Shown piece after piece: positions 1,780-55,529 of a DNA stretch of 63,261 bases. The notes beneath the pieces were generated by a model. The model made no database searches and was not told the DNA's origin. It worked only from the letters and a program-made list of their open reading frames with translations. The stretch spans positions 1 to 63,261 of IMG/VR virus record IMGVR_UViG_3300026156_000001; one strand, 5' to 3'. Position numbers and translations under genes: made by a program. Numbering within the stretch: the first letter of the stretch is position 1; each line of letters begins with the position of its first letter. This DNA is from a virus (taxonomy: Duplodnaviria; Caudoviricetes).

Positions 1780-1815
1780 TTTGTTATTAGTTACGTTTGT
1801 TAATTGTTTATATTG

Positions 1816-1846
1816 CAAACATACGGTAAGAATTTACACTTGTCAA
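1816..1846 (-). promoter_or_regulatory. Bacteroidota sigma-A promoter
   Basis: TTG(1846-1844)-N20-TATGTTTG(1823-1816). Confidence 0.75.
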
Positions 1847-1972
1847 CTGACAATTTGTCAGGTTGTAGCTAAAGTGTTGATAATTATAAGGGTAAAGCAT
1901 GAAAAAAATTTAAATTTATTTTGAACCTGACATTTTGTCATGCTTTAAGTAACTATTTGGTACATTTTGTCA
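1847..1972. promoter_or_regulatory. three TGACA-N3-TGTCA palindromic operator-like boxes
   Basis: CTGACAATTTGTCAG 1847-1861, TGACATTTTGTCA 1928-1940, GTACATTTTGTCA 1960-1972. Confidence 0.55.
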
Positions 1973-2783
1973 TCTATGCAAACAAAGTTTGTATAAGTTT
2001 TTGCTATACAGACCTTAACGTGGTAAAGTTTGGGGGTAAAAGTATTTTTTTCTTTTGTATGAGTAGCAGGAGAAAGATTGGCGTCTGAATATCGTGTACG
2101 TTAATCGTTACGCTATACAAACGACCAACCAACAAACGAAACACTTTTCTTTTATTGGTTGAAAATCAATACGTTAAGGTGTGTCTATTATACTAGATTG
2201 CTGGAGTGCTTACAGAATTAACGCCGACCAAATAAAAGTTGAAAAGTATTTGACAAAAAGAAAAACACAGACCCCCCTCCCCCAAATTCAAAACCCGTTT
2301 CCTTTTTGCCTGATTACTAATATATTATACATAGACCCTACTCCCTGAATTTTTGACAAAATTTTTTATAAGCTCATAGAGTACCCTTTTTTCAATTAAA
2401 ATGACACGAGTGGTATCAATATACCAAAAAACAAAAAGAGTTGAAAAAAACCACCTCTATGGGGCTAGAAACAGCATTGTAGCAATATATTAATTACCTA
2501 TCTCGCACCGCCGCCCCCAGATTGTACTTAAAAGATCGAAAACCCTCCTTACGTCGGTTTCCTATCGATTTACTAACTCTTGATTTAATAATTTATTCTC
2601 AATTCTAATTGAAGTTCAGTGAGGGTTACTAAATCCTTTTCTCACTCCAGTGCTGAATACCTCAATTTTGAGCGTTTTTTTACAATTTTTCGTTTTTGCA
2701 CAATTACTTTTTTATAGATATATATTAATTAGATTTATTTAATAACTATACTGAACGTATATACCCTCTTAGAACTACATAAT

Positions 2784-2856
2784 ATCTAAAAGACATTAAT
2801 CTAAAAGACATTATTTCTATTAGACATTAAACGAGTTAGACTTAACCATTAAGACT
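2784..2856. repeat. 15-16-bp tandem repeats (iteron-like)
   Basis: ATCTAAAAGACATTA twice exactly (2784-2813), followed by degenerate AGAC(A)TTA units. Confidence 0.6.
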
Positions 2857-3121
2857 AATATTATTATACATAAACTATTATTAATATTAACCTCTATTAT
2901 ATAATTATTTATTATATAAATAAATGTATATTAAGGTTTCTATTAAGAAAAAATACACTTTTTTTACAAACTACCAAATTGAATCAAAAAACTAACTTTC
3001 AACAACTTAATAAACCACCTCATCATAAAAAATTACCAAACCATCCAAAAAATAACGAGGTAACCCCTAAATCAACACCATCTCTAAAACACTTAAAAAC
3101 CCAGTACTTTTATGCAAAATA

Positions 3122-41993: not shown

Positions 41994-42004
41994 ATTAATC
42001 AATC

Positions 42005-42109
42005 ATGAAAAAAGCAACACAAAAATCCTGTTGGAAAGGATACGAAAAGAAAGGTACTAAAATAAAATCAGGTAAGAGAGTGAATAACTGTGTTAAAAAG
42101 AAAAAATAG
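42005..42109 (+). CDS. small basic peptide (CWKGY...NCV type)
   Basis: MKKATQKSCWKGYEKKGTKIKSGKRVNNCVKKKK; absent from the supplied track. Confidence 0.6.
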   Translation: MKKATQKSCWKGYEKKGTKIKSGKRVNNCVKKKK

Positions 42110-42143
42110 TTTTATATTTGTTGTTAATTCAAAATTCAATATT

Positions 42144-42398
42144 ATGAAAAAACTATTATTTATCGGATTACTAACACTAGGAATCTCAACATCGGTACAA
42201 GCACAATCACATAAAATGAAGATGTATTGTACAGGTTTTACAACAGGGTTTTATGATGGTTTTTGCTATACACAAGCACCATGTTATGAGCCAGTAGTTC
42301 CTGTATGTCCTACACCACATCGTCCAGATTTTACTTACATGGATGGATATCAAAGAGGTTTTACGCAAGGTAGAACAAAAGCTATTTATACGTTTTAA
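42144..42398 (+). CDS. small secreted Cys-containing protein
   Basis: Sec signal MKKLLFIGLLTLGISTSVQA|Q, 4 Cys, GF..GF..GF and GY..GF..G repeats; TATATTTG at 42113-42120. Confidence 0.7.
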   Translation: MKKLLFIGLLTLGISTSVQAQSHKMKMYCTGFTTGFYDGFCYTQAPCYEPVVPVCPTPHRPDFTYMDGYQRGFTQGRTKAIYTF

Positions 42399-42403
42399 TT
42401 TTG

Positions 42404-42411
42404 TATCTTTG
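42404..42411 (+). promoter_or_regulatory. -7 promoter element driving a non-coding region
   Basis: TATCTTTG with no sizeable ORF downstream. Confidence 0.6.
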
Positions 42412-42417
42412 ATTTAA

Positions 42418-42760
42418 CAGTACCTACTATGCCTCTGATCCGTAATAAACAAGCATACTAGAGTAGGTCTTTTAAGGTAATCGATCTTTACGGGGAGAGA
42501 TAAAACCTTTCAAGTTAGGTGAGAAGACGTTCAAGCAAACCTTGATAAATTTTTTAAATAGAAATTAAATAGTTAATTAGCAGGTCAATATTACATTAAA
42601 AATGTATAACTAGCTATAGCAAGGAGAAATGATGTTGACCAACAACCTTGTGTGCGTCCTGAGTTGGAAGACTATTTTTTATATAGGTTTTTATAGGTCT
42701 TATAACTCGCACCAAGCGGGGGTTTCCAGTATTGGAACGGGACTTATAAGAACTTTTTTT
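42418..42760 (+). ncRNA. putative ~340-nt structured RNA with pseudoknots and a tRNA-Leu-like acceptor element
   Basis: Many complementary segments found by eye, several with G-U pairs on the + strand; promoter upstream and T-run at 42754-42760; family unknown. Confidence 0.7.
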
Positions 42761-42769
42761 ATTTATGAC

Positions 42770-44020
42770 TTATTTAGTTATAATGTTCGGCATATATATC
42801 TCTAGTAATTTATAGAGTTTGTCTTTAAGTTCGATCTTTAGTTTTTTAGATCTATTTTGTTTTAATAAGATCATAAAGGAGCTAACTACTTTGTTGAATT
42901 TGAAAGACTCTGTATAAGAAAAAATCATTTTTTCAAAACTATCATAATCAATAGAATCTTCACCAGTTTCTGTAAGCCAATTGTTCCAACCCCTGATAAA
43001 TCTTTCAATACCTTTTATGTTTTTATCACTCCAACTCCCACCATCAAAATAATGTCCTATGAACATTAAATAGAATCGGACTACATCACTATCGTAGTTA
43101 TCAAGACTGACAACATTTCCTTTACTCTTACTCATTTTTTCACCATTGTTTAAAATCATCCCTTGATGAATTACTTTTTTAAATGGTTCTTCAAAATCTA
43201 TAAAACCAATATCGTTAAGAAACATAGTTATAAACCTTGAATAAATTAAGTGCATACAAGCGTGTTCTTTTCCACCAACGTATAAGTCAACAGGCTTAGG
43301 TTTAATTCCTTTTTTTAAGCAGTAAATAATAGTATAAATACTACTATCTACAAAAGTATCCATTGTATCATTTTCACCATCCAAAGGTATTTTACAACCC
43401 CAATTTCTTTGCCGACTAACGCACCAATCGTGTTGATTTTCTAACCAGTTTCTTTGAGCGTTAATGGTGCTTTTGGGGTAATCGATGGTATCAAGATTTT
43501 TAATCAATCTTTCTTTATAATCTGTTATTTTAAAATACCATTGATTAAGTGTTTTTTTAGTAGTAATATTTCCGCATCTCTCACATCTTTTTTCTTTGAT
43601 TTGTTCACGAGCCAAAACAGTATCGCACTCATTACAAAAATCTACTTCTGCATTTTTTTTGTACGCTAATCCATTTTTATAAAGTTGGGTAAAAAGCCAT
43701 TTTGAATGTTTTTGATAATCCTCATCGGAAGTGATAAGTAATTCTTCAAATTCAGTATTCATTTGTCTTATCTGAACTCTAAATTTATCAATGTTTTCAT
43801 AAGTAACATCTTTAGGATTTCTCCCTACTTTCTTCGCATAATTTTCAGCAGGTAATCCAAAAGAATCATACCCAAAAGGCTGGAAAACTTCATTACCTAT
43901 AAATCTTTGGTATCTACAATAACTATCTATTAACGCATAGTTATACCAATGTCCACAATGTAATCCGTTACCAGACGGATAAGGGAACATCGCTGTTATG
44001 TATTTATAATCCTTATTCAT
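42770..44020 (-). CDS. leuS: minimal leucyl-tRNA synthetase-like protein lacking the CP1 editing domain
   Basis: AMFPYPSG.GLHCGH, GYDSFGLPAEN, CxxC...CxxC, DWCVSRQRNWG, DTMDTFVDSS, DLYVGGKEHA..HL.Y.RF, KMSKSKGN; only 416 aa. Confidence 0.92.
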   Translation of the reverse strand: MNKDYKYITAMFPYPSGNGLHCGHWYNYALIDSYCRYQRFIGNEVFQPFGYDSFGLPAENYAKKVGRNPKDVTYENIDKFRVQIRQMNTEFEELLITSDEDYQKHSKWLFTQLYKNGLAYKKNAEVDFCNECDTVLAREQIKEKRCERCGNITTKKTLNQWYFKITDYKERLIKNLDTIDYPKSTINAQRNWLENQHDWCVSRQRNWGCKIPLDGENDTMDTFVDSSIYTIIYCLKKGIKPKPVDLYVGGKEHACMHLIYSRFITMFLNDIGFIDFEEPFKKVIHQGMILNNGEKMSKSKGNVVSLDNYDSDVVRFYLMFIGHYFDGGSWSDKNIKGIERFIRGWNNWLTETGEDSIDYDSFEKMIFSYTESFKFNKVVSSFMILLKQNRSKKLKIELKDKLYKLLEIYMPNIITK

Positions 44021-44968: not shown

Positions 44969-46354
<1,386 letters not shown>

Positions 46355-54730: not shown

Positions 54731-55162
54731 TTATTTACCTGTAGAACCAAAACCACCAGCACCTCTGTCTGTTTCTTCAAGCATTTCCACTTGATTCCAG
54801 CTGATTTTTTCGTGTTTGGCTATCACCATTTGAGCGATTCTGTCTCCATCGTTTATGGTAAACGGCTCATTGGAAAGGTTTACCAAAATGACTGCAATCT
54901 CACCACGGTAGTCTGCATCTATTGTGCCAGGAGCGTTAAGCACAGTAATCCCTTTTTTGGCAGCGAGTCCGCTTCTTGGACGAACCTGTGCCTCTGTTCC
55001 TATGGGTAGTGCTACAAACAATCCTGTTTTTACAAAGGTTCTTTCTAGCGGTTTGATAGTCAAAGACTCCTCTAAATTTGCTCTTAAGTCCATGCCTGCA
55101 GCTGCAATGGTTTCATAGCTTGGCAATTCGTGCTTTGATTTGTTAATGACTTGGATTTTCAT
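54731..55162 (-). CDS. dut: dUTPase
   Basis: [42 protein letters not shown]. Confidence 0.97.
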
Positions 55163-55529
55163 TTTTTGTTATTTCAACTTTTATATCTTCAAGATTTACA
55201 GAGTTTAACTGACTTATAAAATCTTCATATTCTTCTTTTGAAACTTTTTTACCTTTTACCTTATAATAACCATCTGAATCTTTATAAGCTATTTGATAAC
55301 CATTTTTGTCTAGGGTATATTTATATGAAAAACCATCTGAATTTTCATAAGTTAAAAGATGACCTCTTTCATCTCGGGTGCATTCGTATGAATAACCATC
55401 TGAATTTTGAAAATTTAAAGGTTTACCATTTTCATCGTAATTTTCTTCACATAAAACACCTCTAAGTTCATACTTATGATAAGCTACTACGTCTGATTGT
55501 TTGTGGTAAGTTTTGAGTATTGTTTTCAT
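55143..55529 (-). CDS. beta-hairpin repeat protein, paralog of 1462-1779
   Basis: [10 protein letters not shown]; [14 protein letters not shown] / [14 protein letters not shown] / [14 protein letters not shown]. Confidence 0.72.

Follow-up and report, generated by a model that had tools for sequence, protein, structure and literature searches.

What lies between the two converging gene blocks of this phage, one structured RNA or several separate elements, is the question raised by this locus. The window, meaning the whole stretch of DNA that was analysed, is a viral contig of 63,261 bp with a completeness estimate of 86% and a G+C content of 32%. In a preliminary description, positions 42418-42760 had been read as one pseudoknotted RNA of about 340 nt with a permuted tRNA-Leu-like 3' domain. 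An RNA of this kind, encoded beside a minimal LeuRS and RtcB, would be a striking new class, if true; the tests reported here removed that reading. We give slightly better than even odds to the reading that several separate elements make up the gap, as a composite region where the + and - blocks converge.

Gene layout around the gap

The window encodes terminase, portal, DNA polymerase, GroEL and ribonucleotide reductase, and in its capsid protein it shares 56% identity with Cellulophaga phages phi38:1/phi40:1 and 40% with the Flavobacterium elemo phages. The phage is a Bacteroidota-type podophage, kin to Cellulophaga phage phi38:1. The pattern of TAnnTTTG motifs across the window was that expected for a Bacteroidota host, and an SD-like motif was found in just 2 of 46 window genes. 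The + strand block, which holds the structural genes, extends from 3112 to 42398, and the - strand block, with the replication and accessory genes, from 42770 to 62932; the 371-nt gap 42399-42769 is therefore the convergence point of the blocks. The corresponding convergent junction in phi38:1 is about 43 nt and the elemoE record stops 44 nt past the giant gene, and the long gap is therefore lineage-specific and no family trait. Raised G+C was not found in the gap, and its G+C skew carries on that of the + genes. The features of the gap are collected in Table 1.

Table 1. Position and composition of the features in and beside the gap
Feature	Coordinates	Strand	Description
Left neighbours of the gap			2684-aa protein, 63-aa protein, 84-aa protein (signal-peptide-like start)
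Promoter-like box	42396-42411	+	Two overlapping TAnnTTTG: TAATTTTG (42396-403) and TATCTTTG (42404-411)
Variable leader	42412-42566	+	5' pseudoknot domain of the preliminary description; missing in L050 and the X6 contig
Helix 1	42422-32 with 42453-68	+	ACCTACT-ATGC with GCAT..AGTAGGT
5' pseudoknot pairing	42439-45 with 42488-94	+	TCCGTAA with TTACGGG, one G-U; AAGGT/ACCTT alongside
Core	42567-42682	+	P0 (42567-74 with 42670-77), P1, T-run (42674-79)
P1	42583-93 with 42630-40	+	11 bp, GGTCAATATTA with TGATGTTGACC, two G-U
Possible core pseudoknot	42620-24 with 42646-50	+	CAAGG with CCTTG
Y element	42686-42760	+	Three-way junction: 16-bp basal stem (42686-701 with 42739-754), two hairpins, T7 (42754-60)
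3' hairpins	42706-20; 42724-37	+	CTCGC-ACCAA-GCGGG; TTCCA-GTAT-TGGAA
Stem before the T-run, as first drawn		+	TCTTATAA with TTATAAGA, present
Right neighbours of the gap			416-aa LeuRS-like protein, then PD-(D/E)XK nuclease, then RtcB

The LeuRS-like protein next to the gap (42770-44020, - strand) is reduced to the catalytic core of a bacterial LeuRS and lacks the CP1 editing, anticodon-binding and C-terminal domains. It scored 341 bits against TIGR00396, under the cut-off of 548, and its best PDB matches were LeuRS. Twenty-nine relatives of about 410-487 aa were found on viral contigs (loci L002-L030) at 56-77% identity, and their flanks were unrelated to those in the window. The RtcB gene (44969-46321, - strand) has relatives at 63-91% identity overall, also with unrelated flanks. 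Those at 87-91% protein identity (contigs L041-L044) had nothing but RtcB in common with the window within the flanks compared, and RtcB therefore appears to travel as a single-gene cassette. Judged from these flanks, both the LeuRS-like and the RtcB gene appear to be mobile. Nothing on the gap element was found in the literature on phage aaRS.

On five jumbo-phage contigs (L017, L023 and L026-L028), the LeuRS-like gene was located directly downstream of arrays of tRNA-Leu genes. ARAGORN found no tRNA gene in the window itself.

Pairings in the gap compared with shuffled sequences

All the pairings named in the preliminary description could be read directly in the letters (Table 1). Their abundance was compared with that in shuffled sequences. 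The stretch 42418-42760 contained 16 uninterrupted helices of at least 7 bp with no more than one G-U, where 100 dinucleotide shuffles gave 15.2 ± 3.8, and 54 Watson-Crick helices of 5 bp against 45.3 ± 6.8, a level which 14 of 100 shuffles reached. An 11-bp helix with two G-U pairs arose in 31 of 100 dinucleotide shuffles. The folding energy of the whole gap was unremarkable, with z of -0.69 on the + strand and -0.23 on the - strand (the whole-region range was -0.7 to -1.1). By part, the 5' domain gave z of -0.3 to -0.7 and the middle domain -1.7; the outlying values belonged to the 3' element 42692-42756 (-2.8 on the + strand, -3.4 on the - strand) and to the 5-bp hairpin 42531-45 (-3.6). 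Among the pairings first described, only the two 3' hairpins and the basal stem exceed chance.

Searches for tRNA, tmRNA and described RNA families

The Infernal search against Rfam that had been proposed with the preliminary description matched no described family at gathering score in the whole window (Rfam 15, 0 matches). At E <= 10, two unrelated matches were obtained in 42100-43000, neither in the gap proper. The best sub-threshold matches in 42100-43000, and in 600-900 of the phage contig L050 that is described below, were unrelated and lay 30-80 bits below threshold.

ARAGORN called 0 tRNA and 0 tmRNA in the window, and 0 also at the -ps setting; at lowered thresholds it gave implausible calls only, with introns of 21-202 nt. 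Permuted forms were searched by joining each sub-stretch of 68-130 nt to its own copy and scanning it, with the whole gap covered at step 2. All 6383 circular permutations (2015 from 42640-42769 and 4368 from the whole gap) were without a call, and the Rfam tRNA model had no match in the gap at E <= 10. The tRNA-Leu and tmRNA readings are rejected.

The model behind these readings was a single pseudoknotted RNA of about 340 nt, in which a 3' permuted tRNA-Leu mimic, a possible substrate of the LeuRS-like protein or RtcB, was combined with a tmRNA-like tag frame. In its favour are the minimal LeuRS core and RtcB encoded near the gap, the position of the LeuRS-like gene behind tRNA-Leu arrays in jumbo-phage relatives, and the resemblance to a tRNA of two short hairpins at a junction and of a 7-bp helix followed by ACCA, which can be drawn here (fold a). 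However, the gap has no cloverleaf, no T loop and no detector call, and it had no match by blastn or nhmmer at any of the 29 LeuRS-like loci or the 8 RtcB loci. Fold (a) is disfavoured because its "ACCA end" is the loop of the first hairpin, CTCGC/GCGGG, which a natural G>A strengthens. The absence of a canonical T loop had been noted from the start and holds: the candidate stem TTCCA/TGGAA carries the 4-nt loop GTAT, against a 7-nt loop on a 5-bp stem in a T arm. Fold (b), which reads like a tRNA-Leu with its 3' half placed first, stood in its two hairpins, which natural variation supports, but the long-range helix CGGGA/TCCTG gained no support. In addition, the three parts of the model occur apart in nature, as described below. 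The tRNA-Leu mimic is largely refuted already, and we give it next to no credence.

A tmRNA shares with the gap a short open frame after a paired region, but neither ARAGORN nor Rfam made a tmRNA call, and the frame (42521-42568) is located in the leader, which appears dispensable and is missing from L050. Both substitutions within this putative tag frame were non-synonymous. Bacterial Y RNA-like tRNA mimics (YrlA) are encoded near rsr and rtcB. The non-coding stretch of the gap likewise lies about 2.2 kb from the RtcB gene; unlike YrlA, it is accompanied by neither a TROVE/Rsr gene in the window, where a search with positive controls that responded in 2 genomes found none, nor an Rfam match, and the RtcB relatives at 87-91% have no similar flank.

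Two further candidates were tried and rejected. A ribozyme was dismissed for lack of any Rfam ribozyme match, and a CRISPR-repeat mimic was represented by a sole CRISPR-DR match in the T-run region of L050, at 21 bits against a threshold of 50.

Natural variation within the phage lineage

DNA nearly identical to the locus was found in several soil-metagenome runs, none of them RNA, and contigs of four runs were aligned to 42000-43200, parts of which were without contig cover in some runs. Left out were 30 rows at 43040-43160, one diverged contig (X4 record 5) representing a different LeuRS-like relative; X5 record 9 has one further, unplaced difference outside these tallies. The listed differences in the same-lineage contigs were 10 substitutions (at 42413, 42427, 42456, 42483, 42533, 42559, 42701, 42719, 42725 and 42736), together with small insertions within 42555-42561 and the loss of one T at 42675. 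In X4 record 1, which covers 42000-42668, all 6 differences were at or beyond 42413, and in X6 record 14, which covers 42574-42902, all 4 substitutions were within 42701-42736.

The data showed that the listed substitutions and indels were all in the gap, and that the coding flanks 42000-42398 (399 nt) and 42770-42902 (133 nt) had none. The chance that all 10 substitutions would fall in the gap is (371/903)^10, or about 1e-4. No listed substitution was found in 42560-42674, for which (256/371)^10 gives about 0.02 with a stretch chosen post hoc. These alignments show three regimes in the gap: a freely drifting leader, an invariant core, and a probable terminator that changes fast but keeps its pairs.

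The Y-shaped element at the end of the + block

The Y element is the most stable structure preceding any intergenic T-run in the window (-26.2 kcal/mol). Among its strain substitutions, 42701 T>C turns a U.G into a C-G and 42719 G>A turns a U.G into a U-A, while the paired changes 42725 T>G and 42736 A>C replace a U-A by a G-C. When the four natural substitutions were placed on the window sequence, the predicted + strand fold was unchanged and its energy fell from -26.1 to -31.4 kcal/mol. Of 2000 random sets of four substitutions, just 0.2% did as well as the natural set on the + strand, compared with 13% on the - strand, where the natural substitutions alter the predicted structure. Of the structures in the gap, the Y element is the best supported, and it is strand-specific. 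The stem drawn in the preliminary description, TCTTATAA/TTATAAGA, is present as a pairing, but its register did not hold: 42701 T>C makes a C.A in it, and the shifted 16-bp register gains a pair. The broader claim of structure at the RNA level was borne out as far as the + strand is concerned, since a promoter-like box stands at the start coordinate first given, T-runs occur on this strand only and the 3' substitutions keep the fold; the single unit of about 340 nt was not.

The modelled structure is most likely an intrinsic terminator that closes the + gene block. As in intrinsic terminators, a stable stem runs straight into a U-run, its 3' strand entering T7 at the end of the gene block, and the letters drift while pairing is kept. 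Where a typical intrinsic terminator has a single GC-rich hairpin, this element is a three-way junction in which two 5-bp GC hairpins stand on a 16-bp basal stem. Such a branched form is unusual for a terminator, the basal stem, which adjoins the T-run, is AU/GU-rich, and a simple terminator consensus scan made no call on the element. The phage does use hairpin-plus-T termination: at four other + block sites in the window (7650, 7708, 24383 and 25255), the terminators are simple GC hairpins with a T-run behind them.

An unrelated 4.5-kb viral contig (L031, 388-429) carries a plain terminator, CCCTCGC-ACCAA-GCGGGGG then T7, that shares 19 letters with hairpin 1 of the Y element. In a collection of this size, chance predicts one match of this kind.

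A conserved core in a distantly related phage contig

L050, 2048 nt long and of 31% G+C, was the one contig found when prokaryote genome assemblies were searched with a 20-nt pattern taken from the middle domain. L050 is a phage fragment with an Amidase_2 gene followed by small membrane-protein genes; three of its ORFs matched window proteins (58%, 41% and 42% identity) and the other three had no match. It had been binned in a Candidatus Absconditabacterales genome. Given its phage lysis genes and its match to the window phage, composition is the probable reason why this low-G+C phage fragment was binned there.

L050 688-816 was 93.8% identical to window 42567-42692. Within the core, 111 of 116 columns were identical to L050 688-803, compared with only 41-58% identity at the protein level for the common ORFs. 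The order in L050 is a canonical terminator (AAACCCAG...CTGGGTTTTTTT), then TTTTGTATCTTTA, 15 nt and the core, with the Amidase_2 gene converging downstream. TTTTGTATCTTTA matched window 42399-42411 at 12 of 13 positions. The two sequences were unrelated past the T-run, so L050 is without the Y element. On an X6 contig, the 30 loose letters before 42567 were identical to L050 658-687, and the L050 arrangement therefore occurs in an independent data set. The genes that flank the module are unrelated between the window phage and L050; in both phages the module follows a small exported-protein gene and faces a convergent gene. The single unit first described is thereby dissolved, as its 5' part of about 155 nt is absent from the related element in L050 and in the X6 contig, and its 3' element is absent from L050.

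We also analysed the pairing within the core. P0 runs into the T-run, and 2 of the 5 differences from L050 form a compensatory P0 pair, U-A to C-G, which is compatible with either strand. This was the 1 of 27 core pairs that changed on both sides, the other 26 being invariant; with two sequences compared, 242 of 500 shuffles reached the observed value. Because P1 and the CAAGG/CCTTG pairing are without variation, the comparison speaks neither for nor against them. The core fold was no better than shuffles (z -0.6 and -0.1 on the + strand, -1.6 and -1.7 on the - strand), and the substitution energy test gave p of about 0.11-0.13.

Further copies were sought in several collections. There was no second core copy in the window, no match to the core in Rfam, none in GenBank phages by blastn (the phage-database check proposed earlier, in which the gap too was without a match), and none in 400 further genomes of the phylum of L050. 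A DNA search of 38 whole viral records with LeuRS-like or RtcB relatives gave T-run matches only, and the covariance model R1 found no core in 21 records that included phi38:1 and elemoE. Four DNA-pattern scans of viral contigs returned chance matches only. Nothing useful was obtained from GenBank phages by tblastn with the C-terminus of the giant protein, or from viral contigs scanned with the 84-aa protein and that C-terminus.

The promoter-like box and the variable leader

TAnnTTTG, a -7 promoter motif, is named as Bacteroidetes-specific in PMC10309648. Of the 18 intergenic matches to it in the window, 9 were at 17-36 nt upstream of a correctly oriented ORF start and one more was at 37 nt. 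The two matches that make up the box at the left edge of the gap have no + strand ORF behind them. TTTTGTATCTTT (42399-42410) is kept in L050, where 661-670 and the preceding Ts give the same 12 letters; the last base of the L050 box departs from the TAnnTTTG consensus. In a Bacteroidota sigma-A-type promoter, a -33 TTG is expected about 19 nt upstream. None stands at the usual spacing in the window, and in L050 a TTG is located 15 nt upstream of TATCTTTA. The box may act as a promoter.

The leader contains a small hairpin (42531-45) followed by T6 (42550-55), and the ATG-less "tag" frame. In L050, 15 nt stand in its place, and window 42412 to about 42555 has no counterpart there. The leader carries all six left-half strain substitutions, of which 42413 falls on its second base, and all the insertions. 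Helix 1 loses two pairs without compensation, one to 42427 C>A and one to 42456 T>C. The 5' variant with these two changes and 42483 G>A was 4.2 kcal/mol worse, adopted another structure and was worse than 96% of random sets. The 5' helix and pseudoknot proposed earlier are not supported. The leader appears to be dispensable and poorly constrained in the sequences compared.

The nature of the core

The core product is most likely a small non-coding RNA, which would be about 125 nt long in the L050 form and about 265 nt with the leader in the window. Box and core are conserved and the spacer is not, which argues for constraint on each over one recent transfer; the core is at the same time known from only two independent instances, so the high identity could reflect recent transfer.

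The conserved stretch could also be the 5' part of a small-protein "moron". A frame that opens with ATGATG (42629), 5 nt after an SD-like AAGGAG, would encode a short hydrophobic peptide (MMLTNNLVCVLSW...), the start of which would be masked by P1 and the pseudoknot. The window and L050 have the start codons and the AAGGAG/AAGGGG motif in common, the frame is open in all three versions, and the first 13 residues, and 15 of the first 17, are identical. However, homology stops in the T-run at about codon 17, and the tails beyond it are wholly unlike: the window has one of 58 aa and L050 one of 41 aa, and that of the strain variant, which is one T shorter, has 18 aa. These tails are hydrophobic because the terminator sequence is T-rich. 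In the common part both substitutions are non-synonymous, conservation over the 62 nt before the ATG equals that of the frame, and the SD-like motif occurs in only 2 of the 46 phage genes. The divergence of the frame tails at the T-run and the few SD-like genes of the phage favour a small non-coding RNA, and we regard the peptide reading as rather improbable.

An unlikely reading, which nevertheless deserves somewhat more weight, is that the core works at the DNA level, as a protein-binding or recombination site or as a miniature element bounded by inverted repeats of 8 bp (AAATAGTT/GACTATTT), which moves between phages, the rest of the gap being only a terminator zone. The sharp homology borders at 42567 and about 42680, the differing context of the core in L050, the palindromes in the core (GCTAATTAGC in L050, CTAGCTATAG in both) and a core fold no better than shuffles are all consistent with it. 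Against this, the box is co-conserved with the core across a non-conserved spacer, and in the window as in L050 the core is followed by a T-run. The inverted repeats carry a compensatory change, a better fit to a hairpin than to two independent binding sites, and no more copies were found in the window or in the 38 and 21 related records searched.

We attach little probability to a further reading, in which the core belongs to the - strand and serves the genes that converge on it, the LeuRS-like gene in the window and the amidase gene in L050, as a 3' UTR element. The core is downstream of a - strand gene in both contexts, and the - strand values of z given above are the better ones. But no T-run follows the core on the - strand, the gap holds no - strand TAnnTTTG box, and in the window the Y element and 90 nt lie between the core and the gene. 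The G+C skew, which continues that of the + genes, also opposes this reading, as do the Y substitutions, which fit the + strand only.

Among the closest parallels of the core are phage "morons" and phage-encoded small RNAs, which lie between gene modules as autonomous units of promoter, gene and terminator. The unit of box, core and T-run is likewise compact, has sharp borders, is located at a module junction and is common to otherwise differing phages. Unlike those units, the core is without a homologue in Rfam or GenBank phages, and it is a putative RNA known from its sequence. We tentatively raise the possibility, which we rate well below an even chance, that the box and the 116-nt core are a new mobile small-RNA gene family of soil Bacteroidota phages. 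Such an autonomous cassette, with its own promoter, RNA and terminator, would stand at convergent junctions and be kept nearly unchanged between phages whose proteins have diverged to 41-58% identity, and its invariant loops, including the AAGGAG-like stretch, exposed or masked, might act on a host or phage target. The host phylum in this proposal is one that hardly uses Shine-Dalgarno pairing.

A proposed composite intergenic region

The gap is divided by visible borders into modules, of which the box and core are conserved and the Y element changes on the + strand with its structure preserved. The box and core also occur at another convergent junction, in the distantly related phage contig L050, without the leader or the Y element. 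Transcription and termination in the gap may proceed as follows. A + transcript would start from the Bacteroidota-type box near 42415-42420, pass through the poorly constrained 155-nt leader, and then through the 116-nt core, which would be folded back by its closing helix and end in a weak T-run. The box and core would form a self-contained small transcription unit. Read-through from the core, from the upstream 84-aa gene and from the late operon would be stopped by the 70-nt Y hairpin and T7, and termination there would shield the convergent LeuRS-like gene from antisense transcription.

The gap is a modest but real example of a phage intergenic region built from separately evolving modules, namely a probable branched terminator with natural compensatory changes and an orphan small-RNA-like cassette common to distant phages. 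To our knowledge, the small RNAs of Bacteroidota phages have hardly been described, and the cassette, if expressed, would be a useful first handle on them.

Other features of the window

The divergence point of the two gene blocks (1780-3111) was also inspected. It comprises 1332 nt without a long ORF, with runs of G and runs of C (GGGGGAGGGGGG / CCCCCCTCCCCC near 2255-2300) as well as several strong hairpins, and is probably an early control or origin region. Two paralogous small window proteins (1462-1779 and 55143-55529) share a repeated YxYDxNGN-like motif, and a 58%-identical relative of the two is encoded at L050 3-281, adjoining the module.
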